From Gemmataceae bacterium (lineage in GTDB: Bacteria; Planctomycetota; Planctomycetia; Gemmatales; Gemmataceae), in the NCBI GenBank assembly GCA_019748295.1, contig JAIEPT010000297.1, positions 1 to 11,714 of the forward strand: DNA of 11,714 bases, given 5' to 3'. Positions 112 through 11,529 of this stretch are shown here, in pieces. Made by a program: the position numbers and the translations under genes. Positions within the stretch are counted from its first letter, which is position 1, and each line of letters begins with the position of its first letter. A model generated the notes under the pieces. It worked only from the letters and a program-made list of their open reading frames with translations. It searched no databases and was not told where the DNA came from.

Positions 112-1008
112 ATGAAGGACGCACCGCTCGTCGAATACGGCGCCCCCATTGATCCCGAGATCATGGTGAAGCCGCCGGATGTATCGGAACTGGAACTCGA
201 ACCCGGGCATCCGGGACTTGGCGACGAGGCATATGTGAAGCGTCGTCGCGAACTGTTCGCCCTTTGTCGACATCACCGCCTTGATCGACTTGGCCCGCCG
301 CACATCGATTACACGGACGAAGAAACGCGGATTTGGCGCGACGTCAGTCCCAAGCTGGATGCCTTGCATCGCCAATACGCGTGCAGCCTCTACCTGCAAG
401 CGAAGCGCGAACTCGCCATCAACGAAGCGGAAATCCCGCAACTTCGCACGCTGAGTCAACGGCTCGAACGCGAAACCGGCACGCATCTGGTCCCGGCCGA
501 GGGGGCGTTGCCGTATCGCACCTTCTACGAGTACATCGCCCAGCGCGGCTTCCCGGTGACGCAGTTTCTGCGGCATGGATCGCATCCGGAGTTCACGCCG
601 GAACCGGACATCGTCCACGATTGCCTGGGACATGTGCCGCCGATCATGAATCATGATTACGCGGAACTGCTGCATCTCATCGGCAAAGCGGCAGCTGCCA
701 CGCCGCACGGCGATCAGGTGCTGGCGATCAAACGCTTCAGTTGGTTCAGCATCGAGTTCGGATTGATCGAGGAAGCGGGGGAGACGAAGGTTTTCGGAGC
801 CGGCATCCTGTCGTCCACCGGCGAAATACCGTTTTCGATCCATTCGCCCGATGTGGTGCGAAAGCCGTTCGTGACCGAGGTCGTGATCGAGACGGACTAC
901 GACCCATCTCGGATGCAGGACCACCTGTTCATCGCGCCGTCGTTGCCGTTTCTTCGCCGCGAGTTGGAGAACCTCGTTCGCCGATTTGCGATCCCCGTGT
1001 TGTTCTGA
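112..1008 (+). CDS. phhA: Phenylalanine-4-hydroxylase (biopterin-dependent aromatic amino acid hydroxylase family)
   Basis: The 298-aa ORF carries the catalytic-core signature of bacterial PAH. The iron-binding His pair is in PEPDIVHDCLGHVP, and the iron-binding Glu lies in the conserved block RFSWFSIEFGLIEE..KVFGAGILSSTGE (compare Chromobacterium PAH YWFTVEFGL...YGAGLLSS). Size matches single-domain bacterial PAH. A GGAGGA Shine-Dalgarno sits 7-12 nt upstream of the ATG at 112. Confidence 0.85.
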   Translation: MKDAPLVEYGAPIDPEIMVKPPDVSELELEPGHPGLGDEAYVKRRRELFALCRHHRLDRLGPPHIDYTDEETRIWRDVSPKLDALHRQYACSLYLQAKRELAINEAEIPQLRTLSQRLERETGTHLVPAEGALPYRTFYEYIAQRGFPVTQFLRHGSHPEFTPEPDIVHDCLGHVPPIMNHDYAELLHLIGKAAAATPHGDQVLAIKRFSWFSIEFGLIEEAGETKVFGAGILSSTGEIPFSIHSPDVVRKPFVTEVVIETDYDPSRMQDHLFIAPSLPFLRRELENLVRRFAIPVLF

Positions 1009-1238: not shown

Positions 1239-3731
1239 TTACCGCAGCTTCCACTCCGTGAACAGTCGCTGCTCGCTTTCCTGCTCCTGGCAGAAGATGC
1301 GGACGCGATGCACGTCGTCGAGCGTCGCCCAACTTTGCACGTGCGGACCTTGAAAATCCTGCCGAACGGGCCAACCTAGCGTGGCGGCATCCCGGCTCCA
1401 GGCGGCGAGCAAAGCTTGCATGGCTCGATCGGGAGCGGCCAGTTCCTTGCCTTCAATGCGATGGCGGGCGAGAACGCGAATAGCGCGATCGCCGGCGAAC
1501 CAGGCCATGTACCCGTCGTAGTGCGGGTCGTTGACGGCGACGAAGTAGCCGTCATCGAGCTTGGCGGCCCCTAGCTTTTGCAGGTCGGCGAGCGACATGC
1601 CGACCTGCACCTTCGACGTTCCGCCCGGCAAATACGCGAGAGGCGGCAGCGCGACCCCGGCGGCGTGCTCCAGCGGGCAATCGCGAAGGATGAGTTCCGT
1701 CGATCCGCTTTGCGTGACCACCAGCAGCGTCATGTCGTCGTGCCAGCCGAAACGCGATTCCGGACGGCTCGCCGGCAGCTCCTTCCAGGTCGTGGCATCG
1801 ATCGGCAATGCCTCGGCGGGTCCGAGCTTCGCTTTGATCCCATCGACGATTCTGGCAGCCGGCCCGTCATAGCGCACACGCACTTCGACCGCTCGACCCG
1901 CGTCATCGAAACGGGCAGACCACTGGCGAACCACGGATTCCGCAGGCGACTTAGGCGAACCGACAAACGCGGCGACGACTCCGCCGGGAATGTCGCGAAC
2001 ATGCATCTGCGGCGATCGTGGCAGCAGGGCGGCGAATTCGGCCTTCGTCATGCCCAGGCGGAACCCATCGACCTCTCGTTGGACCCGGCGAACCGGCTTG
2101 CCTTCAGCAAGACGCGTGGCACGGTCTTCCGCATCGCGCTTGGTTGCAGCTTCCTTGCGTAATGCGAGATCCGAGTGCACGCTGGCGGCTTCAAGTACAA
2201 CGGCTTGGCTCTGGGCCGCTGGGAATTGCAAGGCGAGCCTTGTTTTGCCGTCGTTCCAAACCAGATGAATGCTTCGACTGGCCGGAACCATTTCGATGTC
2301 GGCGGGTCCGAAGGTTCGCCATCCCTCGGCGGCGACTTGGCCAAGCGTCGTGCGCTGTTTCGGTCGTTCCGTGAGGATGAACGTCGCCTTTCGCACGAGG
2401 TCATGCGAATCCTCGCGCTCGAGCTTCCCTTCCGCGAGGAGGCGTGCGGCAAACGGATGACGCACCGCGGCAAGCGCCGGCGTGTCCGCAGTCACGGACG
2501 ATTGCCTCTGCTTCCACGCAATGAGCCGTCGGCCATGCTCGAAGCCGCGATCAAGATGCACGATGCCGAAATCGCGCGGCAAGGGCGTCGTTGCCGGGAT
2601 GTCGAAGGTCACGCGCACCAGAGCCCCGACTAGGGCATGAGCCGGCGTGACCACCATCTCCGTCTTGGCGGCGCCGAAGCGATACGTGACACGGCGAAAC
2701 TCCGGCATCGCTTCCGCATGCGTGCCGACGCCGCGCTCTTTCCAACAGGGCGCCAGCTGGTCCGGCGTGTGCCATTGCGAGAGCGTCGGCCCGTAAGCCA
2801 GCACCACTTCGGCCGCTTTACGATCTTTCCCGACAAAAACGAGCGCGGCATCGATCCCTTCGAAAGGCAAATCGAGTGCGAGAAGATCGAGCAAGCGATC
2901 GGGATTCGCGATTTGGACCGCCGTGTTGTCGGTGGATGCGTCAAGCCAATCAGCAAGGGCCAGGTGATTTGGAAGTTCCGGGGTCCACGTCGGCGTTTCC
3001 AAACCGGCGAAGAAGCGATCCACTTGGTCCGCCAGATCGCCCCGACCGCGTTCGCGATACGCCTTGGCCGCATCCTTCAAAACGCCAAGGCCCCGCGTCA
3101 GCAGCGTTTGGCCGAGCGGGCTTTTGCGAACGGCTTCCGGAAGCAGTTCGCGCAACTGTCGATGCATGCCGATGAGTGTCGCCGCCCCTTCTTTTTCGTC
3201 GGACGCCACGCGATACTCCGCGTGCAGCAGATGCAGGCCGACGAGGCGAGTCCACTCCAGCGGGTAGTTGCGGCCCACGCGATATTTCTCAAGCGTTGCC
3301 GTGTCGCCGAATTTTGCCGCTGCTTCGAAATCGCCGTGTCGCGCGAGATGCCAGCTCACGGCCGAATCGCGGTCGGCGTCTTTGAGATCATCGGGAACGC
3401 TGACGCCATGCTTGTCGGACCACGCCGCCTGGCGGAAGACGGGGACGGTCAGCGGAAAGCGAGCATCCGGCAGCAACAGAAACGGGGCGGATCCTTCTTG
3501 CCGGCAGCGCTCAAGCGTCGTGAGTTTCGTTTCGACCGACCCGGCCATGGCAGCGAGTTCTTGGCGAGGCCTCTGCAACAGGGCGCCCAGATCGACGACG
3601 TCTTTGCCTGACAGCAAATCGAAAGGAACCTTCGTGAGCGTCACGGCAACCGCGTCGGGTCCCTTCTCGGGGGGCGAGCCGCATCCCATGAGGGCAACAC
3701 ACAAGGCAAGGGCGACATACGGTCGGCGCAT
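1239..3731 (-). CDS. Hypothetical lipoprotein (~830 aa), no recognisable domain
   Basis: An uninterrupted minus-strand reading frame. The internal ATG at complement(3729-3731) is preceded by AGGAG 9-13 nt upstream (revcomp of 3732-3750 = ggatctcaggagttgcccc). It opens with a lipoprotein-type signal peptide MRRPYVALALCVALMGC (lipobox-like LMGC). The opposite strand across this span is broken into short ORFs. Upstream of this ATG the same frame runs on as an antisense artefact through the ATPase gene. Confidence 0.7.
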   Translation of the reverse strand: MRRPYVALALCVALMGCGSPPEKGPDAVAVTLTKVPFDLLSGKDVVDLGALLQRPRQELAAMAGSVETKLTTLERCRQEGSAPFLLLPDARFPLTVPVFRQAAWSDKHGVSVPDDLKDADRDSAVSWHLARHGDFEAAAKFGDTATLEKYRVGRNYPLEWTRLVGLHLLHAEYRVASDEKEGAATLIGMHRQLRELLPEAVRKSPLGQTLLTRGLGVLKDAAKAYRERGRGDLADQVDRFFAGLETPTWTPELPNHLALADWLDASTDNTAVQIANPDRLLDLLALDLPFEGIDAALVFVGKDRKAAEVVLAYGPTLSQWHTPDQLAPCWKERGVGTHAEAMPEFRRVTYRFGAAKTEMVVTPAHALVGALVRVTFDIPATTPLPRDFGIVHLDRGFEHGRRLIAWKQRQSSVTADTPALAAVRHPFAARLLAEGKLEREDSHDLVRKATFILTERPKQRTTLGQVAAEGWRTFGPADIEMVPASRSIHLVWNDGKTRLALQFPAAQSQAVVLEAASVHSDLALRKEAATKRDAEDRATRLAEGKPVRRVQREVDGFRLGMTKAEFAALLPRSPQMHVRDIPGGVVAAFVGSPKSPAESVVRQWSARFDDAGRAVEVRVRYDGPAARIVDGIKAKLGPAEALPIDATTWKELPASRPESRFGWHDDMTLLVVTQSGSTELILRDCPLEHAAGVALPPLAYLPGGTSKVQVGMSLADLQKLGAAKLDDGYFVAVNDPHYDGYMAWFAGDRAIRVLARHRIEGKELAAPDRAMQALLAAWSRDAATLGWPVRQDFQGPHVQSWATLDDVHRVRIFCQEQESEQRLFTEWKLR

Positions 3732-3956
3732 GGGGCAACTCCTGAGATCCGGGCCTCGGTTCTCGCGCGCAACTATAGGTCGCGTTTCGGAGAGAGGCGG
3801 ATGCCGGCGCGGATTTGGTGAACGGTCCATCCCGCCTCCGCATCCGTTGAGCGCTTCACGCCGCCGCCGCTGTGGGCGCGGCCTCATTGACCCGCTGTTT
3901 TCGGCGTCGTAGGATGAAGTTTCGCCAGCCACGCCTCCTAGCCGCTCTCGGCCCGA
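3732..3956. promoter_or_regulatory. Divergent promoter/leader region between the lipoprotein gene (-) and the ATPase-SPFH fusion gene (+)
   Basis: A 225-bp non-coding gap between two divergently oriented start codons. It contains a 7-bp inverted repeat cggatgc...gcatccg with a ~38-nt spacer and a duplicated gcggat motif. No promoter consensus can be assigned with confidence in this lineage. Confidence 0.3.
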
Positions 3957-5970
3957 ATGCATCGCGAACTGTCTCACGCTGATTCCGCCTTCGCTCAAGA
4001 ACGCCCCTATGCCCTTTATCTGGGCGCCGCGTTTCTGGCGCTCTTGCTCGGCCTCGATCTGGCTCCGCGCATCGGAGCAATGTTTGGCGTTCCCACGCTG
4101 TCTGGACTTCCGAACGGCATTTGGGGCTTCCGCTTCGCCTTGATCGCCGCGGTGCTCGGCGGAGCCCGCGTCCTTTACGGCTCGCTTAATTCGCTCATGG
4201 AAGGCCGGCTTGGAGCGGACGCCGCTCTCGCCATCGCCTGCATCGCCGCCATCATGATGAACGAGCCGTTGGTGGCGGCCGAGGTCGTGTTCATCGCCAT
4301 GGTGGGCGAATGTCTCGAAGCGTTCACCTTCGATCGAACGCAACGAGCCGTGCGGAAGATCGTCGAGGTCTTTCCCATCCGCTGCTGGCGGCTCGAAGAA
4401 GGGAAGGAAACGCGGGTCTTCACGCGCGATTTGCGCGTCGGCGATCTCATCGTCGTCAAACCTGGCGGCAAAATTCCCATCGATGGCCTCGTGCAATCCG
4501 GCCGATCGGCCGTCGATGCGAGCCCGCTCACCGGCGAAAGCCTGCCGCTCGATAAAGGCCCGGGGGACGAAGTGCTGGCGGGGTCGATCAACCTGCACGG
4601 CGCGCTGACGATCCTCGCCCAGAAAGTCGCGGAACAAACCGTGGCCGGGAAGGTGATCGAACTCACCGCCCGGGCTCTCAAGGACAAAACCTCCGGCGAA
4701 CGCATTGCGGACCGGATGGCGCGGTGGTTCCTGCCGGTGCTGCTCGGCCTGGCGCTGCTGACGTTTTTTGGCGCCCTGATTCATTTCGGCGGCGGCGTCT
4801 TCCGCGGAGCCAACATGCCGCGCCTCGGTTGGGGCCAGGCGGTAAGGTCGAGCATGATCCCGACGCTCGCGGTGCTTGTCGTCGCATGCCCCTGCGCGTT
4901 GATCCTCGCCACTCCCGCCGCCGTCATCGCGGCACTCGGACGCTTGGCGGGAACCGGCGTCCTTATCAAGGGAGGCTCCGCCCTCGAGCGACTTGCCGGA
5001 GTGACGGCATTCGCTTTCGACAAGACCGGCACCATCACCGAAGGAAAGCTCGAACTCGGCGATGTGTTGCCGATGCTCGGCGTGGAGGAGAACGAACTGA
5101 TCCGCGTGGCCGCGTCCGCGGAACGGTCGAGCGAGCATCCGCTCGCCCGGCTCGTGCTTGAAGAAGCGAAACGCCGTGGGTTGCAGGTCGAGGACGCGGT
5201 CGATGATTTCGTAGCGTTGCCCGGAGCCGGGATTTCCGCACGTGTCAACGGCTCGACGATCCTTGTGGGCGGAAGGCGATTGCTCGAAGAGCAGGGGGTT
5301 CGCTTCGACGACGCGGCACAATCGCTGTTGGCCCAGCTCGATGCCGAGGGTCAGACAACGCTCTTCGTCGCCCGTGATGGCCGGATCCTTGGAGCGATGG
5401 GGGCACGCGACCGGGTGCGTCCCGAAACCGCGGGCGTCGTCGCCAAGCTGCGTTCGCTGGGCATTGGGCCCATCGTGCTGCTCACCGGCGATCGCTCGGC
5501 CGCGGCTCAAGCGGCGGCGCGCGATCTCGGATTCGATCACATCCGTTCCGAACTCCTGCCGCAAGACAAGGCGACGCATCTCGACGCTCTGCGGATCGGT
5601 GGCGGCAAGGTCGCGATGGTCGGCGACGGCATCAACGACGCCCCCGCTTTGGCTCGCGCCGATGTCGGACTGGCTCTGGGCGGTTCCGGCGTCGATCTGA
5701 CGGCCGAGGCGGGCGACATCATCCTCATGGGGGATCCGATCCGCACGCTGCCGCTCTTGGTCCAGCTCTCGCGGCAAACCGTTCGCATCATCCGCCAAAA
5801 CATTCTCTGGTTCGCGTTCGGCGTCAACATCGTCGGCATCCTGCTCACCAGCTGGCTTTGGCCGTTCATTGCCCCGGCCGGCTGGTCCGATCAATCGCCG
5901 CTCGCCGCGGTGGTGTATCACCAGTTCGGCTCGTTGCTGGTGCTGCTCAATTCGATGCGGCTCCTCTGGT
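3957..5970 (+). other. P1B-type ATPase module of the fusion ORF (8 predicted TMs, A/P/N domains)
   Basis: Motifs TGES, CPC, DKTGT, HP and GDGINDAP in canonical order. No N-terminal CxxC heavy-metal-associated domain. TM7/TM8 show neither a clean Cu+ (YN...MxxSS) nor Zn2+ (K...DxG) signature (TM8 = HQFGSLLVLLNSMRL). Confidence 0.7.
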
Positions 5971-7205
5971 TCGAGCGCGACGCGCGGCAAGGGACGCCTT
6001 CCGCCTGGAGGCGAATGGACGCTTGGTTGGAAAAGCATGTGGACGTCGATGCGTGGATCCACGGCATCGAACATCACGCGGGCAAGGTCGCGGCGTCGGT
6101 AGGTTTCTTGTTCGCCGGAGGGTGGCTTGCGAGCGGCGTCATCGTCGTCGGCCCCGATGAGCATGCCGTCGTTGCTCGGTTCGGCCGCCCGATTGCGGAC
6201 CTCGAAACGGGCTGGCATGGGCGTTGGCCTTGGCCCATCGACGCCGAGCGCCGCGTGACTCGACGTGTGCGGACTGTGGAAGTCGGTTTCCGCGAGGCGC
6301 AAGAACAGACGAAGGCGGCTGCATCGTGGACGTGGACCAGCGCGCACCGCAAAGAGAATCGCCTCGCCCACGAGTCGACGATGATCACGGGGGACAACAA
6401 CCTCGTCGAAGTACAGGCCATCGTCCGCTTCCAGATCGCTGACCCGCGCACCTACTTGTTCGAAGCGAACGGCGCTGAGGAGATTTTGCGGGCCGACGCG
6501 GAGGCCACGCTTCGCACGTTGATCGCAGGCGAAACATTCGCCGAGCTGCTTACTTCGGGCAGGGCGACATTGCAGACGGAGACGCTGCGGCGTTTGAAGG
6601 AGAAGGCGGCGAGCTATGGACCGAAAGGACTCGGCATCGAAATCGAAGGCGTGTCGCTGATCGATCTGCATCCGCCAGGCGAGGTGGTCGCTTCCTATTA
6701 CAACGTGGCCGTCGCCATGCAAGGTCGTGATCGCCGGGTGAACGAGGCGAAGACCGGAGCCTGGAAGATCCGGGCGGATGCCGAGGCGGATGCCCAAACA
6801 ATCGTTCGCCGGGCGCAGGCGAGCGCGACGGAAAAGGTGCAGACGGCGGCGGGCGAGGCCGTGCGGTTCACGGAACTCAGCAATGCAACGCGCGGACTTT
6901 CCTGGCGGGACGAAGGACGCCTTTGGCTGCAAGGCGCCTGGCAAGCGATGCGCGGCGAATCGTTCGATGCGATTGGGCGCCAGCAGGAAGTGGAAAGGCG
7001 ATCGCTCGTCGAACAACAACGGCTGCTCGCGGAGTTTCGGCTCTTCTGGGTCACGCTTGGCTCGGCGTTGCAACGACGCGACGTCATCTTTATCGACAGC
7101 GACAAGGCAGGCGGGCGACGGCAGTTGTTCCTGACGGACCCCGAACTGCTGCGAGGGCCCAATCCCCTCATGCTCGCGCCGCAGTCCAAAGACGGCAACC
7201 GGTGA
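3957..7205 (+). CDS. Fusion protein: P1B-type heavy-metal-translocating P-type ATPase (N-terminal ~670 aa) fused in-frame to an HflK/HflC-like SPFH (band-7) membrane protein module (C-terminal ~370 aa)
   Basis: Single 1082-aa ORF with no stop. ATPase motifs: actuator TGES (4530-4541), transmembrane CPC in VVACPCALI (4886-4894), phosphorylation site DKTGT (5019-5033), SEHPLA, hinge GDGINDAPAL (5622-5645), and two N-terminal extra TMs typical of P1B pumps. After the last ATPase TM pair there is a linker and one additional TM (VGFLFAGGWLASGVIVV). A region alignable to E. coli HflK follows: DEHAVVARFGRP~ERGVVTRFGK, ETGWHGRWPWPIDAERRVTRRV~EPGLNWKPTFIDEVKPVNV, MITGDNNLVEVQAIVRFQIADPRTYLFEA~LTSDENVVRVEMNVQYRVTNPEKYLYSV, HPPGEVVASYYNVAVAMQGRDRR~RPPEEVKAAFDDAIAARENEQ, and a C-terminal VIFIDSDKAGGRRQLFL~KVLVNDKGGNLMVLPL. 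Confidence 0.85.
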   Translation: MHRELSHADSAFAQERPYALYLGAAFLALLLGLDLAPRIGAMFGVPTLSGLPNGIWGFRFALIAAVLGGARVLYGSLNSLMEGRLGADAALAIACIAAIMMNEPLVAAEVVFIAMVGECLEAFTFDRTQRAVRKIVEVFPIRCWRLEEGKETRVFTRDLRVGDLIVVKPGGKIPIDGLVQSGRSAVDASPLTGESLPLDKGPGDEVLAGSINLHGALTILAQKVAEQTVAGKVIELTARALKDKTSGERIADRMARWFLPVLLGLALLTFFGALIHFGGGVFRGANMPRLGWGQAVRSSMIPTLAVLVVACPCALILATPAAVIAALGRLAGTGVLIKGGSALERLAGVTAFAFDKTGTITEGKLELGDVLPMLGVEENELIRVAASAERSSEHPLARLVLEEAKRRGLQVEDAVDDFVALPGAGISARVNGSTILVGGRRLLEEQGVRFDDAAQSLLAQLDAEGQTTLFVARDGRILGAMGARDRVRPETAGVVAKLRSLGIGPIVLLTGDRSAAAQAAARDLGFDHIRSELLPQDKATHLDALRIGGGKVAMVGDGINDAPALARADVGLALGGSGVDLTAEAGDIILMGDPIRTLPLLVQLSRQTVRIIRQNILWFAFGVNIVGILLTSWLWPFIAPAGWSDQSPLAAVVYHQFGSLLVLLNSMRLLWFERDARQGTPSAWRRMDAWLEKHVDVDAWIHGIEHHAGKVAASVGFLFAGGWLASGVIVVGPDEHAVVARFGRPIADLETGWHGRWPWPIDAERRVTRRVRTVEVGFREAQEQTKAAASWTWTSAHRKENRLAHESTMITGDNNLVEVQAIVRFQIADPRTYLFEANGAEEILRADAEATLRTLIAGETFAELLTSGRATLQTETLRRLKEKAASYGPKGLGIEIEGVSLIDLHPPGEVVASYYNVAVAMQGRDRRVNEAKTGAWKIRADAEADAQTIVRRAQASATEKVQTAAGEAVRFTELSNATRGLSWRDEGRLWLQGAWQAMRGESFDAIGRQQEVERRSLVEQQRLLAEFRLFWVTLGSALQRRDVIFIDSDKAGGRRQLFLTDPELLRGPNPLMLAPQSKDGNR
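6090..7202 (+). other. HflK/HflC-like module of the fusion ORF: single TM + SPFH/band-7 domain + coiled-coil + HflK-type C-terminal tail
   Basis: TM at ~6090-6150 and SPFH core at ~6150-6880, ending in the A/E/R/Q-rich coiled-coil segment RADAEADAQTIVRRAQASATEKVQTAAGEAVRF. The C-terminal tail has the HflK-like DxDKxGxxxxLxL block. Boundaries are approximate. Confidence 0.65.
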
Positions 7206-7258
7206 CGCTTCATCGGCAATCAGACCGCGAATGCGCCCCAGGTGGCACGTGCAGTTTG

Positions 7259-7374
7259 GGTGGCACGCCCTGAGTGCAGCGAAGGGCGTGGAAAACCCGC
7301 TGAAAGTTCATTGCAAGTCGGATGCTGCCCCAGCACCGCTTCCACGCCCTTCGCCACACTCAGGGCGTGCCACC
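7259..7374. repeat. 35-bp near-perfect inverted repeat (2 mismatches) with 46-nt spacer in the intergenic region downstream of the ATPase-SPFH gene
   Basis: Left arm 7259-7293 ggtggcacgccctgagtgcagcgaagggcgtggaa. Right arm 7340-7374 ttccacgcccttcgccacactcagggcgtgccacc. Its reverse complement differs from the left arm at only 2 positions. A partial direct copy, caggtggcacgtgcag, lies at 7239-7254, just upstream of the left arm. Confidence 0.6.
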
Positions 7375-7592
7375 GGGGGAATGCTTGGGCGCCAATTTTT
7401 GGGCGGACGGTCCGGACCGCGAACGCCAAGGGCTCTCGTTGAGGTACCTTCGCCTGAACATTTGCCGCACCCCTTGACCGTGTCTGCCCCTTGCGGGGTT
7501 CGCGCCAAACGTTTATCCTTAATATCGAGTTCGTGCCCTCCTGCTTGTCTCGTCCTCGCCGATCCTTGATCGGTCCCGCCTGAGGTTTTCGG

Positions 7593-10079
7593 ATGCGTGT
7601 CGTCGGACTACTCTCCTGCGCCCTCGCTCTCGTTGCGCCAGCTATCTTAATCGCGGCCGAGCCGGTTCGCGGCAAGTTGATCGTCCATCCCGAGAAGATC
7701 GAACTCGTCGGAGCGACGAGCCGTCATGCGTTTCTCGTCACGCAAGTTCAGCCCGACGGTTCGCGTCGCGACGTGACCGCCAAAGCGAAGGTCGTCACCA
7801 GCAACCCGGCCATCGTTCGCCTGGAGAAAGGCGAAGCGATCGCGGCGGCCGATGGAACGTGCGATCTTCAAGTCGAACTCGACGGCCTCGCGGCTCAGCT
7901 CCCAGTAACCGTCCGCGATTCCGGCAAAGCGACTCCCCCTTCGTTTCGCAACGACATCGAACCGCTGCTGACGCGCTTTGGCTGCAACATGGGGCAATGC
8001 CATGGCAAAGGCGCGGGCCAGAACGGCTTTCGCCTTTCGCTCCGCGGCTATGCGGCCGAGTGGGATTACTTTTGGATCACGCGTGAATTCGACAGCCGGC
8101 GGGTCAACTCCAGCGAACCCGATGCAAGCCTGCTGCTCCGCAAACCGCTTGGCTTGGCTCCCCACGAAGGGGGCAAGCTTTGGCAATCCGGCGGTCGCGA
8201 GCACCAGCTCGTGCTCGATTGGATCAAGGCGGGCGTCCCGGGCATCTCGAAGGAAGACCTCGCACTCAAGAACATCGAGATTTTGCCGGGCAATCGCATT
8301 CTTAGGGTCGGCGAAGAGCAGCAATTGCTCGTGCAGGCCGAGTTCGCGGACGGCCTCAAACGGGACGTGACTTGGCTCACGCAGTTCGTTTCCAACGACG
8401 GCCTCGCCGAAGTGTCGCCGACCGGACTCGTGAAGATCGTCCGCCCCGGCGAAACCGCCATCCGGGCCACGTTCCTGGGCCAGGTGTCCGTCATCACGGT
8501 CGCCTCGCCTTACGATCAGAAGTTCGATCCCGCGACGCTCGCCAAGAAAAACAACTTCATCGATGAGCATGTTTTCGCGAAGCTCGCGGAACTCAAGGTT
8601 GAAGCGTCCGAACTGTGCAGCGACGAAACCTTTATCCGCCGAGTGTTTCTCGACGCCATCGGCCTGCCGCCGACTGCGGTAGAAATTCGCACGTTCCTCG
8701 CGGATCGTGATGCGACCAAGCGGGCAAAGCTGATCGACCGCTTGCTCGAACGGCCCGAGTTCGTCGATTTCTGGACGTTGCAACTCAGCGATCTTCTGCA
8801 GAATCGCAAGGAAGCGGACCACGACGTGCGCGGCGCCAAGGGCGTCCGCGACATGCACAACTGGATCCGCGGGCAGGTTGCCATCAACCGGCCGTGGGAC
8901 GAGATGGCCCGCGAACTGCTCACCACGACCGGCGACGTCAGCGAGAAGCCGGCCGTCGGCTATTACATCGTGAACGTCGGCGAACATCGCGATTCGCACA
9001 AGTCCACGATCGTCGCCAATGCGGCCCAGACCTTCCTTGGCGCCCGCATCGGCTGTGCCCAGTGCCACAACCATCCATCCGAAAAATACACGCAAGATGA
9101 TTACTACCATTTCGCCGGGTTCTTCTCGCGCATCCGCCTCGATCGCAAGGACCCGAAGCAGGGCGTCACGAAGCTGATGGTTTCGACGGCGGATCAGAAT
9201 CAGAACAAGCAGCCGGTGGGCGTCTCGCAACCGCGGACGAACCAGTTCCTGCCGCCGCGTCCGCTGGACCGGACCGAGACGCCGGTGAAGCCGGGCGAAG
9301 ATCCGCGCGAGAAGTTGGCCCAATGGATCACGAATCCGAACAACGAACACTTCGCGGGCGCGATGGTCAATCGCCTGTGGGCCCACTTCATGGGCGTGGG
9401 CCTCGTGGAACCGATCGACGATCTCCGCGTCAGCAATCCTCCTTCCAACCCTGGTCTTTGGAAGGCGCTGGGCCAGGAGTTCGTCGCCAAGAAGTTCGAT
9501 CGCCGGCACATGATCCGCACGATCCTCAACTCGCGTACCTACCAGCTCAGCTCCGAAACCCGGAGAAGCAACGAGCGCGACCTTCGGTTCTATTCGCACT
9601 ACTATGCTCGCCGACTACCTGCCGAAGTGATGCTTGATGCCATCTCCCAGGCGACGGGCGTCCCGGAAAAGTTCGAGGGCTACCCCGTCGGCCTGCGAGC
9701 CGCACAGGTTCCGGACCCCGCGGTGAAGTCGTACTTCCTAGGACTCTTCGGCCGCAGCGAGCGCATCACCGCCTGTGCCTGCGAACGCAATAATGAGGTA
9801 ACGCTGCCGCAACTGCTCCATGTCAGCGGCGGCACGACGATCGGTCAAAAGATCGCCGATGCGAATGGCCGATTGACCGACTTGCTCAAAGCGAAGAAGA
9901 GCGACACGGAATTGGTCGATGAGTTGTTCCTTACAACGCTATGCCGCCTGCCGCGTTCGCAAGAACGGCAACTGGCGGAAAACGATCTCAAGTCGGCGGA
10001 GCCGACGGAACGCGAACAGGTCTTCCGCGACCTGTTCTGGGTGTTGATGAACACGAAGGAATTCGCGTTCAATCATTAA
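7593..10079 (+). CDS. Secreted Planctomycete-type multidomain protein: signal peptide – Big_2 – PSCyt1-like (CX4CH variant) – Big_2 – PSCyt2/DUF1549 – PSD1/DUF1553
   Basis: 828 aa. N-terminal Sec signal MRVVGLLSCALALVAPAILIAA. Two bacterial Ig-like (Big_2-type) segments (res ~25-110 and ~225-305). A cytochrome-like segment with CNMGQCHG (nt 7983-8003) ends in LVLDWIKAGVP. The DUF1549 core is FIRRVFLDAIGLPPTAVEIRTFLADRD...LIDRLLERPEF. The DUF1553 region holds CAQCHNHP (nt 9054-9077). GAGG lies 7 nt upstream of the ATG. The partner DUF1501 gene follows immediately, as is typical. Confidence 0.85.
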   Translation: MRVVGLLSCALALVAPAILIAAEPVRGKLIVHPEKIELVGATSRHAFLVTQVQPDGSRRDVTAKAKVVTSNPAIVRLEKGEAIAAADGTCDLQVELDGLAAQLPVTVRDSGKATPPSFRNDIEPLLTRFGCNMGQCHGKGAGQNGFRLSLRGYAAEWDYFWITREFDSRRVNSSEPDASLLLRKPLGLAPHEGGKLWQSGGREHQLVLDWIKAGVPGISKEDLALKNIEILPGNRILRVGEEQQLLVQAEFADGLKRDVTWLTQFVSNDGLAEVSPTGLVKIVRPGETAIRATFLGQVSVITVASPYDQKFDPATLAKKNNFIDEHVFAKLAELKVEASELCSDETFIRRVFLDAIGLPPTAVEIRTFLADRDATKRAKLIDRLLERPEFVDFWTLQLSDLLQNRKEADHDVRGAKGVRDMHNWIRGQVAINRPWDEMARELLTTTGDVSEKPAVGYYIVNVGEHRDSHKSTIVANAAQTFLGARIGCAQCHNHPSEKYTQDDYYHFAGFFSRIRLDRKDPKQGVTKLMVSTADQNQNKQPVGVSQPRTNQFLPPRPLDRTETPVKPGEDPREKLAQWITNPNNEHFAGAMVNRLWAHFMGVGLVEPIDDLRVSNPPSNPGLWKALGQEFVAKKFDRRHMIRTILNSRTYQLSSETRRSNERDLRFYSHYYARRLPAEVMLDAISQATGVPEKFEGYPVGLRAAQVPDPAVKSYFLGLFGRSERITACACERNNEVTLPQLLHVSGGTTIGQKIADANGRLTDLLKAKKSDTELVDELFLTTLCRLPRSQERQLAENDLKSAEPTEREQVFRDLFWVLMNTKEFAFNH

Positions 10080-10187: not shown

Positions 10188-10221
10188 CTTGACGCGAACG
10201 ACTGAAATCAAGGATCCGACC

Positions 10222-11529
10222 ATGCTCGATATTTTCAGCGACCGCTCGAATCGCCGCGATTTTCTTCGCGTCGGCGCCCTCACCGGCCTGGGCCTGAGTT
10301 TGCCGCGGCTGCTCGAAGCGCAGTCGGCGGGCGCCGCCGAGAATCGCCGGGGGGCACGGGCGAAGTCGGTCGTCCTCGTCTACCTTGGCGGCGGCCTGTC
10401 GCATCATGACAGCTTTGATCTGAAGCCGGATGCGCCTTCGGAGATCGCGGGCATCTACAAGCCGATGCGCACGAACGTTGCGGGCACGAACATCGGCGAA
10501 CTGCTGCCGCGGTTCGGCACGATCATGGACAAGGTCGCCCTCGTTCGCTCCGGCGCCCACAACAACGATCACCACGAAACCGCCACCAACTGGGTGCTCT
10601 CCGGCCGATTCGGCTCCCCCTTCGGCGACTTCCCCGCGATCGGCGCCGTCGTCGCCCATCAACTCGGCTTCCGCGGCGTGCTGCCGCCATACGTGTCGGT
10701 GCCCCGCAATCCGTCGTTCACCTGGGAACTCGGCAAAAGCGCCTGGCTCGGCGGACGCTTCGAATCGTTCAAAACCGGCGATCCGAATCAGCCCGGCTTC
10801 AAAGTGCAGGATGTCGCCCCGACGGAAAACCTGACTCCCCGCTCGGCGCAGCGCCGCCAGAGTTTGCTTCAGGCAATGGACGGCCTTGCTCGCAACATTC
10901 AGGGGAACGACCAGATCCAGACCTACGGCGAATTTCAACAGAGGGCCGCCAGCCTGCTGCTTTCGCCCGAAGCTCGTTCCGCGTTCGACATCGACCTCGA
11001 AAGTCCAACACTCCGCGATCGCTATGGCCGCAACACCTTTGGTCAAAGCTGCCTCCTGGCCCGCCGACTCGTGGAACGGGGCGTGCGATTCGTCACCGTC
11101 AACTACGGCGGCTGGGATCACCACGGCAATATCTTCCCAGGCCTCAACCGCAAGCTGCCGGAATTGGACACCGGCTTCGCGACGATGATCGAAGACATGG
11201 AGACGCGCGGCCTGCTTTCCGATACGCTCGTGGTGATGATGGGCGAGTTCGGCCGCACGCCGCGGATCAACAAGGACACCGGCCGCGACCACTGGGGCCC
11301 GGCCGCATCGCTGATTTTCGCCGGCGCCGGCGTCCGCGGGGGCCTGGTGCTCGGCGCCACCGATCGCCAGGGCGCCTACGTGACGCGCCGCCCCGTCTCG
11401 CCCGCGGATGTGGCTTACACGATCTATGAAGCCGTCGGCGTCGACCCCCACCGCTGGCTCACCCACCCCGAAGGCCGGCCGATCGAAATTCTGGACCAGG
11501 GCGAAATGGTGCGCGAGCTGTACGCGTAA
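10222..11529 (+). CDS. DUF1501 family protein (alkaline phosphatase/sulfatase-like superfamily), Tat-exported
   Basis: Preferred start is the ATG at 10222, with AAGGA 8 nt upstream. The TTG at 10189 in the ORF track overlaps the inverted repeat. Twin-arginine signal SNRRDFLRVGALTGLGLSLPRLLEA. Characteristic DUF1501 blocks: VVLVYLGGGLSHHDSFDLKPDAP, NNDHHETATNWVLSG, VNYGGWDHHGNIF, MMGEFGRTPRIN..GRDHWG. Its position directly downstream of a DUF1549/DUF1553 gene is the canonical Planctomycete pairing. Confidence 0.85.
   Translation: MLDIFSDRSNRRDFLRVGALTGLGLSLPRLLEAQSAGAAENRRGARAKSVVLVYLGGGLSHHDSFDLKPDAPSEIAGIYKPMRTNVAGTNIGELLPRFGTIMDKVALVRSGAHNNDHHETATNWVLSGRFGSPFGDFPAIGAVVAHQLGFRGVLPPYVSVPRNPSFTWELGKSAWLGGRFESFKTGDPNQPGFKVQDVAPTENLTPRSAQRRQSLLQAMDGLARNIQGNDQIQTYGEFQQRAASLLLSPEARSAFDIDLESPTLRDRYGRNTFGQSCLLARRLVERGVRFVTVNYGGWDHHGNIFPGLNRKLPELDTGFATMIEDMETRGLLSDTLVVMMGEFGRTPRINKDTGRDHWGPAASLIFAGAGVRGGLVLGATDRQGAYVTRRPVSPADVAYTIYEAVGVDPHRWLTHPEGRPIEILDQGEMVRELYA

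Follow-up and report, generated by a model that had tools for sequence, protein, structure and literature searches.

A single gene in the window (the whole stretch of DNA analyzed here, 11,714 nucleotides from a Gemmataceae bacterium, contig JAIEPT010000297.1) encodes one polypeptide in which a complete P1B-type transition-metal export ATPase is joined to an HflK-type SPFH module, and this fusion is both ancient and widespread. The gene lies at 3957..7205 on the forward strand, as are all features below unless stated otherwise, and is supported by its open reading frame, Pfam, homologues and AlphaFold2. What the fusion does can only be inferred, since there is no experiment on any member, and the reading I favor, by a modest margin, is of a pump tethered to a periplasmic cage of the HflK/C type, possibly with a metal site on its exit side. 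No published description of a pump-SPFH architecture was found in the full-text literature searched, in keeping with the first-pass annotation, made before any database search, which had not recognized the architecture as a described one.

One reading frame, two modules

The open reading frame listing gives an ATG start, a stop codon at 7203-7205 and 1082 amino acids, and the translation contains zero internal stops. The chain runs from the P1B-type ATPase (aa 1-674) through a linker (675-707) and a ninth transmembrane helix, TM9 (708-727), to the SPFH module (728-1039), and the AlphaFold2 model (mean pLDDT 87.6) shows eight long pump helices, two short helices within 682-706, a ninth membrane helix at 708-725, an SPFH alpha/beta domain at 728-905, a 72-residue helix at 908-979 and a second long helix at 1003-1039. 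The first-pass annotation had claimed that a whole P1B pump and a whole HflK-like SPFH module are genuinely fused in frame through one extra membrane helix, and had allowed that the claim would fall if profile searches found no Band_7/SPFH domain in the C-terminal part or if homologues universally encoded the two parts as separate genes. The claim held: Pfam detects E1-E2_ATPase (aa 140-331, 5e-47), Hydrolase (aa 350-569, 2.7e-32) and Band_7 (PF01145, aa 730-933, 1.5e-20) in the one product, and homologues from approximately 50 independent loci match it by tblastn as a continuous single frame from residue 1 to about 1075.

Upstream, a promoter-like site (TTGACC-17-TAGGAT, 3887..3915) lies in the 225-bp divergent intergenic region 3732-3956; it is the sole sigma-70-like match within 3600-7700, where shuffled sequence averages 0.3, and it is weak evidence because planctomycete promoters may differ from the sigma-70 consensus. 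An opposite-strand reading frame of 1944 aa (1239..7073) was set aside as an antisense shadow, except for its last 830 codons.

A conserved and selected fusion

The combination of E1-E2_ATPase, Hydrolase and Band_7 is not rare, occurring in at least 120 protein clusters at 90% identity, and NCBI nr already lists this very protein with a generic name. The fusion is conserved across Planctomycetota and also present in an Acidobacteriota MAG; 121 representative homologues score E<1e-30, many of those listed being 1000-1150 aa long with the SPFH match at ~690-1090. Both halves are under purifying selection, with dN/dS against the nearest relative (87% identity) of 0.066 in the pump half and 0.074 in the SPFH half (313 SPFH/coiled-coil codons, dS ~1.5). 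A referee might object that two genes have been joined by a chimeric assembly, a frameshift or an overlooked stop, and indeed the gene is split into 2-5 frames in contigs L001, L002, L004, L023, L031, L050, L055, L065 and L072, and is also split in the short-read MAG contigs L036 and L071. However, nearly all of these contigs are long-read (nanopore-type) assemblies with frame changes scattered along the gene rather than at the junction, the ~50 loci that read through include that of the cultured Gemmata sp. IIL30, and the junction sequence (LLWFER, linker, HWxxHH, TM9) is itself conserved across homologues, so that an artefact is all but excluded.

The pump and its likely substrate

The pump module (3957..5978), with eight membrane helices and A, P and N domains, scores 540 bits against TIGR01525 (cutoff 346), its Foldseek matches are P1B pumps (E 1e-44), and the AlphaFold2 helices and a match to the solved pump sCoaT agree. 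All of the P1B motifs read in the first-pass annotation were located: TGES, the A-domain dephosphorylation motif (aa 192-195, 4530..4541), whose G193 and E194 are invariant in alignment A2; the CPC metal-binding motif in M4 (aa 311-313, 4887..4895), present in 149 of 150 homologues; the phosphorylation site DKTGT (aa 355-359, 5019..5033), also invariant in alignment A2; the HP motif as SEHP from residue 392; and GDGINDAP from residue 556. In M6/TM8, the motif YHQFGS (aa 654-659, 5916..5933) contributes His655, kept in 150/150 homologues and aligned (against 7qbz) to the H of 'HEGST', at the position of the sCoaT counter-ion H657 (PMC8880997). Pfam found no heavy-metal-binding (HMA) domain in the fusion protein; its N-terminal cytoplasmic motif MHRELSH (3957..3977) carries His2 and His7, conserved in 142 and 124 of 150 homologues respectively, and P1B-4 pumps have an N-tail rich in metal ligands (PMC8880997).

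Since CPC in M4 is combined with a P1B-4-type M6 histidine and with no heavy-metal-binding domain, a divalent substrate of the Zn/Co/Cd type is likely, an inference from sequence alone. The pump passes the cutoff of the Cd/Zn subfamily model and falls below that of the Cu model, which leaves the JGI label 'Cu+-exporting' unsupported. Metal specificity is nonetheless unresolved, as CPC together with H-Q-x-G-S fits no classical P1B-1, -2 or -4 signature.

Crossing the membrane once more

Between the modules, a cytoplasmic linker of 33 residues (aa 675-707, 5979..6077) forms two short helices (682-694 and 697-706, pLDDT 62-75 in AlphaFold2) and ends in the histidine motif IHGIEHH (6060-6077 being aa 702-707), where H702 is found in 132, H706 in 107 and H707 in 78 of 150 homologues; the span from R674 to G727 holds 52 residues here against a homologue median of 56. 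Within it is an in-frame ATG with GGAGG upstream, at 6015..6017 rather than ~6016 as first noted. The suggestion that the SPFH part might also be expressed independently from it finds no support as a family feature, because this start codon, Met687, is not conserved: at most 5 of 150 homologues carry Met, which does not rank among the eight most frequent residues at this site (L38, A35, V25, F19 and so on).

TM9 (aa 708-727, 6078..6137), seen by hydropathy and in the AlphaFold2 model, aligns with and is equivalent to the single N-terminal membrane helix of canonical HflK, and aligns also with that of the partner genes described below. The initial topological argument is supported, namely that an exporter with an even number of membrane helices ends inside and one added helix places the SPFH domain outside, and the pattern recurs independently in SPFH fusions to CDF transporters as 6 TM + 1, the established CDF topology being six. 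Counts of K+R flanking TM9 run contrary to the positive-inside rule (1.9 before, 2.7 after), an excess caused by an RRFGR box that is common to canonical periplasmic HflK. The periplasmic location of the SPFH domain remains a prediction.

An HflK-like module with residues of its own

The SPFH (Band_7) domain (aa 728-905, 6138..6671) is HflK-like by profile, sequence and fold: the C-terminal 396 aa score 136.9 bits against the NCBIfam HflK model TIGR01933, under its cutoff of 159.4, and the C-terminal part matches E. coli HflK chains by sequence at E 2e-19 and by fold at E 4e-18 (Foldseek, top matches 7vhq_E and 9cz2_XA). The leading fold matches (HflK, HflC, stomatin, QmcA, prohibitin, erlin and flotillin) have been solved as oligomeric domes or cages. 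Beyond this domain come the long coiled-coil helix CC1 (aa 908-979, 6678..6893; pLDDT ~76-95), which corresponds in alignment to the wall helix of HflK; a second helical stretch (aa 983-1039, 6903..7073; AlphaFold2), including a Planctomycetota-specific insertion of roughly 45 residues that is absent from Acidobacteriota and CDF forms; and a C-terminal tail (aa 1040-1082, 7074..7202) with the conserved box IDSDKAGGRRQLFL, the nearly invariant D1047 and R1055, and a disordered end (pLDDT <55).

What marks exporter-fused copies is a flexible insertion of ~34 residues in the SPFH domain (aa 778-811) containing W793-T-S-A-H797 (6333..6347), with W793 in 150/150 and H797 in 149/150 homologues, in a loop of low pLDDT in both models. 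The W-x3-H pattern occurs in ATPase- and CDF-fused SPFH copies; the HflC-like and HflK-like genes lack it, as does canonical HflK. Similarly, H905-P-P at the SPFH/coiled-coil junction (6669..6677) has a histidine specific to exporter-fused copies, found in 150/150 homologues and, as [DESRT]-x-H-P-[PST], in 14/14 CDF fusions, whereas canonical HflK reads ARPPEEV at this position and the partner genes carry N, S or T there.

Partners, and other exporters

In 37 of 60 informative loci, those with enough downstream DNA, the fusion is followed by an HflC-like and then an HflK-like gene, with start and stop codons overlapping or abutting in L080 and L081, and by NCBIfam typing the second gene passes the HflC and the third the HflK cutoff in Acidobacteriota and CDF systems. 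The ancestral context is exporter-HflK', then HflC-like, then HflK-like gene, which refines the first picture of the locus. Neither partner was found beside the window's gene, nor within the available sequence of its 87% relative, and because of this a hetero-oligomer model cannot be demonstrated in this genome.

It could be argued that the SPFH tail here is a decaying remnant, a functionless leftover on a working pump, as the window and L075 are nested within a clade whose other members retain both partner genes. Against this, the dN/dS of the SPFH part is as low as given above, the family-invariant residues (W793, H797, E806 and H905) are all retained, and a large partner-less clade (Gemmata, Frigoriglobus and Urbifossiella) also keeps the full module, making decay very unlikely.

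Furthermore, in other bacteria the same SPFH clade is joined to CDF transporters, and also to a Cu/Zn efflux permease of the SO_0444 type (NF033936, 352 bits, cutoff 300), each followed by the same Band_7 gene pair in the loci examined. In CDFs of the Zn/Co/Cd type, two H-x3-D motifs typically make up an HD-HD site, and both (in TM2 and TM5) are present in 10 of the 14 CDF fusions. A W-x3-H search found no match in the fusion P0177, in which HPP is present.

What the fusion may do

In the cage-tethered reading, the SPFH module would sit in the periplasm and build a ring or cage by oligomerizing, as HflK/C, stomatin and QmcA do; with partners present the fusion would co-assemble with them, and in this genome it would assemble alone or with unlinked partners. 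Such an assembly would therefore hold several pump units at or inside a fenced membrane patch, a placement that is itself inferred. Taken jointly, without a multimer model, these three steps seem to me more apt to be right than wrong, though not by much, and transport proteins held in an SPFH dome have a precedent in stomatin with AQP1 and UT-B (PMC12407830; PDB 9zd2). Because W793-x3-H797 and H905 are restricted to exporter-fused copies and common to three unrelated exporter folds, they might contact the one feature that the three exporters share, the exported divalent metal (Zn/Co/Cd-type most likely), acting as an exit-side acceptor or as a sensor of the product in the periplasm, by which metal load would be coupled to the assembly. 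This part is more doubtful, and I lean slightly against it; the conserved histidines could possibly serve partner contacts or lipid binding instead. The consequences first proposed for the fusion (oligomerization, microdomain targeting and quality control) likewise remain inference.

A possible alternative is FtsH-coupled turnover, in which the HflK-like module places the exporter in an FtsH-HflK/C supercomplex where FtsH degrades or spares it by metal status, with cytoplasmic histidine motifs (N-terminal MHxxxSH, linker HWxxHH) as a metal-sensitive degron. In its favor, the partners are bona fide HflC and HflK by the NCBIfam cutoffs (Acidobacteriota and CDF systems), the best-matching solved HflK/C structures contain FtsH (7wi3, 9cz2), and cytoplasmic histidines are conserved adjoining TM9 and at the N-terminus. 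FtsH is also known to control levels of the P-type ATPase MgtA, and the yeast P1B pump Pca1 is rescued from degradation by its own substrate. However, no ftsH was found among the neighbor clusters or locus gene tables examined, the fusion-specific W793, H797 and H905 are predicted to be periplasmic whereas the protease and ATPase domains of FtsH are cytoplasmic, and the linker histidine motif is weak or absent in CDF fusions. This alternative is compatible with the cage-tethered pump and does not exclude it.

Less likely still is a purely cis-regulatory periplasmic domain, a lid or sensor on the exit pathway without higher-order assembly, akin to stomatin modulating channels. The strong purifying selection on an SPFH domain without adjacent partners and the conserved His/Trp loop within it would suit such a role, but the coiled-coil wall helices and C-terminal box that build the cage in HflK/C are fully retained, the ancestral context holds two additional SPFH genes, and a single docking surface for a lid is hardly conceivable on three unrelated exporter folds. 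I consider this unlikely and retain the cage-tethered pump.

Comparison with known systems

Among bacterial SPFH assemblies, QmcA-YbbJ (an SPFH-NfeD pair; 8z5g, 26 chains of the matched sequence in the entry) is a multi-chain assembly whose QmcA is among the fold matches, but the fusion has no NfeD partner, and QmcA has the opposite orientation and no transporter attached. The human stomatin dome enclosing AQP1 and UT-B (PMC12407830; 9zd2, 9oh9) is likewise an SPFH oligomer physically associated with transport proteins, and its chains are among the top fold matches; its association is non-covalent, however, stomatin is monotopic and cytoplasm-facing, and its clients are water and urea channels rather than metal pumps.

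For the pump, the best solved relative is sCoaT, the Sulfitobacter P1B-4 ATPase (7QBZ/7QC0; PMC8880997; E 4e-100, aa 50-674 to 64-676), which shares eight membrane helices, the lack of a classical heavy-metal-binding domain, a short N-tail with metal ligands and the M6 histidine. It differs in having SPC for CPC in M4 and H-E-G-x-T for H-Q-x-G-S in M6, and lacks the ninth helix and ~375-residue periplasmic extension.

For the SPFH module, E. coli HflK/HflC, the FtsH modulator (7VHP/7VHQ, 7WI3, 9CZ2), is the closest system, HflK being the best match by both sequence and fold, and has the same order of parts: one membrane helix, an SPFH domain outside the cytoplasm, the long wall helix of the coiled coil, a second helical stretch and a closing segment at the C-terminus. 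Loci related to the window carry hflC-like and hflK-like partners. Unlike HflK, the fusion has a whole 8-TM pump in place of the cytoplasmic N-terminus, the extra W-x3-H loop, HPP instead of RPP, the insertion of the Planctomycetota forms, a score under the equivalog cutoff and no hflC adjoining in the window; the FtsH link is known for HflK/HflC and merely hypothetical for the fusion.

Finally, the CDF- and SO_0444-SPFH fusions (P0108, P0135 and P0117 from Ca. Tritonobacter lacicola, and P0177), which NCBI names 'FtsH protease activity modulator HflK', belong to the same SPFH clade and show roughly 30-35% identity to the SPFH part of the window protein. Like the window protein they have HPP in all cases, W-x3-H in the CDF fusions and a one-TM connector, and like the ATPase family they have the downstream Band_7 pair (hflC-like then hflK-like in CDF system L076), but where the window protein has a P-type ATPase they have a secondary transporter, either a CDF membrane domain for which no cytoplasmic C-terminal domain was matched or a permease of the ArsP_1 type. 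One scaffold module is thus carried by two further, unrelated kinds of exporter, which connects scaffold cages with metal efflux in a way that appears not to have been described.

One gene, one polypeptide

The gene at 3957..7205 (+) runs for 1082 codons from an ATG start with zero internal stops. A profile search of its 1082-aa product, as proposed by the first-pass annotation, finds by Pfam both ATPase domains, E1-E2_ATPase (aa 140-331, E 5e-47) and Hydrolase (aa 350-569, E 2.7e-32), together with Band_7/SPFH (aa 730-933, E 1.5e-20). The catalytic motifs lie where that annotation had placed them (TGES at aa 192, CPC at 311, DKTGT at 355, SEHP at 392-395 and GDGINDAP at 556), and DKTGT, TGES, the HP motif and the GDGxNDxP hinge are invariant across 150 homologues. 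A whole-protein AlphaFold2 model built from 150 homologues (mean pLDDT 87.6) contains eight pump transmembrane (TM) helices (aa 18-43, 60-81, 87-100, 104-136, 246-279, 292-330, 598-633 and 644-671), two short linker helices (aa 682-706), a ninth TM helix, TM9 (aa 708-725), an SPFH alpha/beta domain (aa 728-905), a 72-residue helix (aa 908-979) and a second long helix (aa 1003-1039). The annotated single extra TM after the pump is thus upheld both by the AlphaFold2 helix at 708-725 and by one additional hydrophobic segment (~aa 711-734) C-terminal to the pump.

NCBI nr already lists the same protein under the title 'MAG: cation-translocating P-type ATPase family protein [Gemmataceae bacterium]', and it holds at least 120 separate clusters (90% identity), ~1030-1150 aa long, that carry the three Pfam domains, with identities of 53-87%. 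A genome scan (one genome per species, with an alignment as the query, a single-protein query having returned zero matches) gave 72 loci, nearly throughout from Gemmataceae or other Planctomycetota and including the cultured Gemmata sp. IIL30; its MAG labels 'Kuenenia', 'Alcaligenaceae' and 'Thermoleophilaceae' perhaps reflect mis-binning. An assembly artefact, which would make the joined frame spurious, is all but excluded, since ~50 of the 72 loci read through as one continuous single-frame HSP (q1-~1075 by tblastn with the 1082-aa query) and the junction is conserved: ...YHQxGSLxVLLNSMRLLWFER is followed by a linker with D.W...D...HWxxHH, by TM9 and by SG..V.PDE, and the stretch R674-G727 is most often 56 residues long among homologues. 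The gene falls into 2-5 frames at nine loci on long-read (nanopore-type) MAG contigs (L001, L002, L004, L023, L031, L050, L055, L065 and L072), and L036 and L071 are split too, though on short-read MAG contigs; because the frame changes are scattered gene-wide in nearly all split loci, those of the long-read MAGs, they bear the signature of indel errors. Protein databases consequently contain false 'stand-alone' ATPase and HflK genes called from such contigs, and two candidate stand-alone SPFH proteins, P0012 and P0013, were rejected as pieces of frameshifted long-read contigs.

Selection acts on both halves. Compared with the orthologue at L075, the 87%-identical nearest relative, the pump has a dN/dS of 0.066 and the SPFH plus coiled-coil region one of 0.074, with the linker and TM9 together at 0.17; the value of 0.074 contradicts the rival view of the SPFH module as a functionless remnant in this lineage, which I regard as very unlikely. 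The first-pass claims of a genuine in-frame fusion therefore hold, and its proposed proteome search shows the ATPase-Band_7 order to be widespread and the junction conserved. Its suggestion that the SPFH part may also be expressed independently from an internal ATG (placed at 6016, corrected here to 6015) fails as a family feature, since the corresponding Met687 occurs in at most 5 of 150 homologues and a search near it found no promoter-like site. This is one polypeptide, with both halves conserved and under selection.

An HflK-type fold behind the pump

The best NCBIfam model for the SPFH half is that of HflK (TIGR01933, 136.9 bits, below the 159.4 equivalog cutoff), with the HflC model reaching merely 17 bits. 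E. coli HflK chains are the top PDB matches by sequence (E ~2e-19), and Foldseek with an AlphaFold2 model of aa 687-1082 alone (pLDDT 84.5) again places HflK chains first (7vhq_E at 4e-18, and 9cz2_XA), next returning HflC, stomatin, QmcA, prohibitin, erlin and flotillin. An HflK-type fold is present in the fusion, so that the HflK-like module read by the first-pass annotation stands by Pfam, best HMM match, sequence and fold, with the equivalog cutoff not reached. The Foldseek matches are proteins solved as oligomeric domes or cages, and the alternative that the SPFH module is purely a cis-acting lid or sensor, forming no cage, is unlikely.

A P1B pump without an assigned subgroup

The pump scores 540.4 bits with the heavy-metal P1B model TIGR01525 (cutoff 346) and fulfils the P1B criteria of eight TM helices (MA, MB and M1-M6) and a Cys/Pro motif, CPC (311-313), in M4. 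It also passes the broader Cd/Zn subfamily model TIGR01512 (422.5 bits, cutoff 313.5), but not the Cu subfamily model TIGR01511 (379.7 bits, cutoff 397), which leaves the JGI label 'Cu+-exporting ATPase' unsupported. P1B-1 (Cu+) pumps are further marked by YN in M5 and MxxSS in M6, and the fusion matches neither, M5 reading FAFGVN and M6 YHQFGS. Nor does it fit P1B-2 (Zn/Cd/Pb): that signature is an M5 Lys counter-ion with M6 DxG (K693/D714 in ZntA; PMC8880997), whereas the relevant helices here hold N624 and H655, and DxG is absent from the M6 stretch (aa 645-670) in the 150-homologue profile.

By sequence the closest solved relative is the P1B-4 pump sCoaT (7qbz, E 4e-100), with whose H657, the built-in counter-ion of the HEGxT motif (Grønberg et al., PMC8880997), the invariant M6 His655 is aligned. 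A further likeness to P1B-4 is the lack of a classical N-terminal heavy-metal-binding domain: Pfam matches no HMA domain in the fusion protein, whose first TM begins at ~aa 18 behind a conserved tail, MHREISH (H2 in 142 and H7 in 124 of 150 homologues). However, sCoaT and P1B-4 pumps carry SPC in M4 (PMC8880997) where the fusion family has CPC in 149/150, and HEGxT in M6 where the family has Y-H-Q-x-G-S with an invariant His. With CPC and the P1B-4 histidine in one protein, the family may represent a P1B subgroup not yet classified. From the HMM scores, the similarity to sCoaT, H655, CPC and the missing metal-binding domain, I infer from sequence alone a P1B ATPase with P1B-4-like chemistry and no assigned subgroup, and on the same basis a divalent substrate of Zn/Co/Cd/Fe type is more probable than Cu(I). 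Rfam at gathering thresholds found no riboswitch or other regulatory RNA in the window and seven related loci, its sole match there being one tRNA in the CDF-fusion locus L076, and hence there is no RNA clue to metal specificity.

Partner genes and other exporters

When flanking ORFs of all related loci are clustered, the sole conserved neighbours are two SPFH genes directly downstream on the same strand, the first HflC-like and the second HflK-like, and no ftsH, metallochaperone or regulator is among the clustered neighbours. Of the 60 loci whose sequence extends 2.3 kb or more downstream of the fusion, 37 have both partners, 4 only the first and 19 neither, this last set including the window, L075 and the Gemmata/Frigoriglobus/Urbifossiella clade; the module thus has HflC/HflK partner genes in most lineages. 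In the planctomycete locus L006 the HflC-like gene 2 passes TIGR01932 (142.8 bits, cutoff 134.4) and gene 3 stays below the TIGR01933 cutoff at 122.8 bits, whereas outside that phylum both partners pass clearly (217-249 bits). A 496-aa SBP_bac_11 periplasmic solute-binding protein (5165-6655 (+)) lies directly upstream of the L006 fusion and is not conserved across loci. At three Limnoglobus loci (L038, L042 and L044) and at L033 only the HflC-like gene follows, which gives an 'HflK-HflC pair' whose HflK member bears the pump.

No partner-like sequence was found in the window or within 10 kb in L075; the rest of the window's genome was not covered. In neighbour-joining trees, which are rough, distance-based and used for gross grouping alone, the window and L075 are nested in a clade whose remaining members retain both partners, and the missing adjacency is therefore a secondary loss in this lineage. 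The gap after the fusion (7206-7592) holds no remnant of an HflC-like gene, only unannotatable ORFs (7231-7569 (+) and 7220-7675 (-)) without a Pfam match. Synteny is rearranged between the window and L075. The flanking genes, a biopterin-dependent aromatic amino-acid hydroxylase (112-1008 (+)), a PSCyt2/PSD1 (DUF1549/DUF1553) protein with a Big_2 domain (7593-10079 (+)) and a DUF1501 protein, its usual partner (10189-11529 (+)), are ordinary planctomycete genes with no evident metal connection. On the opposite strand, a 1944-aa ORF (1239..7073 (-)) was rejected as a gene because, bar its last 830 codons, it is an antisense shadow through the whole ATPase gene; those codons form a real conserved gene (1239-3731 (-)) with a lipoprotein-like start, MRRPYVALALCVALMGC, no Pfam family and 68-73% identity (tblastx) to an 831-aa gene beside the orthologous fusion in L075.

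The SPFH fusion recurs with other metal exporters. An SPFH-half search, exhaustive over representatives, gave 121 matches at E<1e-30 and returned, besides proteins of ~1000-1150 aa, a set of ~550-620 aa. CDF fusions, in which a Cation_efflux (CDF) membrane domain is followed by one TM and Band_7, form 14 clusters at 50% identity within the top 150 matches, one of them from Candidatus Tritonobacter lacicola (Auribacterota), and two Band_7 genes follow at all three CDF loci with enough downstream sequence (L076, L077 and L079), typed at L076 as HflC-like, then HflK-like. Both H-x3-D motifs (TM2 and TM5) are present in 10/14; in CDF proteins this pair makes up site A, of the HD-HD kind that typifies Zn/Co/Cd-type members. 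A third exporter, the SO_0444-family Cu/Zn efflux permease P0177 (NF033936 at 352 bits, above 300; Pfam ArsP_1), is fused to the same module and again has two Band_7 genes behind it. Scores of 183-223 bits put the CDF- and SO_0444-fused relatives above the TIGR01933 cutoff, and outside Planctomycetota an ATPase fusion occurs in a Bryobacteraceae (Acidobacteriota) MAG, with start and stop codons overlapping across the three genes. A fourth SPFH architecture of 650-690 aa (P0040, P0041, P0043 and P0046) has ~six predicted TM, one further TM and an HflK-like SPFH; its N-terminal part has a conserved FYRPR...SRLLGL..EPGG...DYQFGF.VS.TWFY region, matches no Pfam family and may possibly be another transporter type.

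Residues of the fused copies and a possible exporter cage

When ATPase- and CDF-linked SPFH modules are aligned against the HflC-like and HflK-like partner genes and a canonical HflK, two features occur in fused copies alone: a ~25-35-residue SPFH insertion with W-x3-H (here W793-T-S-A-H797), and the His of D-[LV]-H-P-P at the SPFH/coiled-coil junction (H905), at a site that reads ARPPEEV in canonical HflK and holds N, S or T in the partner genes. Across 150 ATPase fusions neither W793 nor H905 varies, H797 is present in 149, and an HPP-type match is found in 14/14 CDF fusions, the counts having been made with regular expressions on data in which many entries are fragments. In a search for a stand-alone SPFH gene with these motifs beside a separate exporter, the one candidate checked, P0192, was rejected: its contig is only 1 kb long, and the protein is probably fragmentary. 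Since the predicted periplasmic residues are common to three unrelated exporter folds, the exported metal is a simpler shared factor than a protein docking surface; this remains an inference, with loop pLDDT low and proximity of H797 and H905 unproven.

P1B and CDF proteins have an even number of TM helices with the C-terminus inside, and HflK is an N-in type-II protein, so the pump C-terminus is predicted to be cytoplasmic and the SPFH module periplasmic. The K/R count around TM9 does not support this topology and is uninformative, the RRFGR box behind that count being present in periplasmic HflK as well. The SPFH module would then oligomerize into an HflK/C-like ring or cage, taking the places of HflK protomers where partners exist and keeping several pumps within a fenced membrane patch. 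I lean modestly towards this scheme as a whole, which rests on neither experiment nor multimer model; the stomatin dome enclosing AQP1 and UT-B offers a precedent, though a non-covalent one (PMC12407830). More tentative is the inference that the His/Trp residues peculiar to fused copies accept or sense metal on the exit side, which has no metal-binding data behind it and on which I would not yet bet. A rival compatible with both the cage and the metal site is metal-dependent exporter turnover coupled to FtsH, which I rate as less likely, FtsH binding or modulation being only inferred; ftsH is absent from the neighbour clusters and the locus gene tables examined.

A bolder reading, which taken whole I hold to be more doubtful than not, is that exporter-HflK' fusions are an unrecognized class of 'caged' metal-efflux systems, in which a periplasmic cage of fused HflK paralogue, HflC and HflK would bear P1B, CDF or SO_0444 exporters in cis and the fusion-specific periplasmic His/Trp sites would receive or sense exported Zn-type metal. 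If true, the cage would be a periplasmic metal-handling or metal-sensing compartment, possibly gating FtsH-dependent exporter turnover.

Significance and comparison with known systems

Beyond FtsH, few clients are known for bacterial SPFH cages, and covalent fusion with three unrelated metal-exporter families directly identifies a client class while giving structural and genetic studies a handle tagged 1:1. To my knowledge no other P1B pump has a large periplasmic C-terminal domain, and if the periplasmic His sites do bind metal they would represent a new coupling of efflux to exit-side sensing or hand-off. Annotation is a problem as well, since pipelines differ in how they name this one family: 'Cu+-exporting ATPase', 'cation-translocating P-type ATPase' and 'HflK' are all in use. 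The first-pass annotation did not recognize the architecture as a described one, and this holds within the literature searched, where no description of such fusions was found (coverage is incomplete and absence is not proof) and where the terms 'fused', 'fusion' and 'stomatin' are all absent from a 2023 P-type ATPase review; the proteins themselves are already public under generic or misleading names.

Like HflK, the fusion has its Band_7/SPFH domain after one TM and before coiled-coil helices, and unlike HflK, which is encoded beside hflC and joins its product in a hetero-oligomer, it has no adjacent hflC in the window or in the 10 kb around the L075 fusion, the window copy being a partner-less member of the exporter-SPFH fusion family. 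The parts are thus of known kinds, and what is new is their covalent coupling, the three-gene module and the recurrence with three exporter families.
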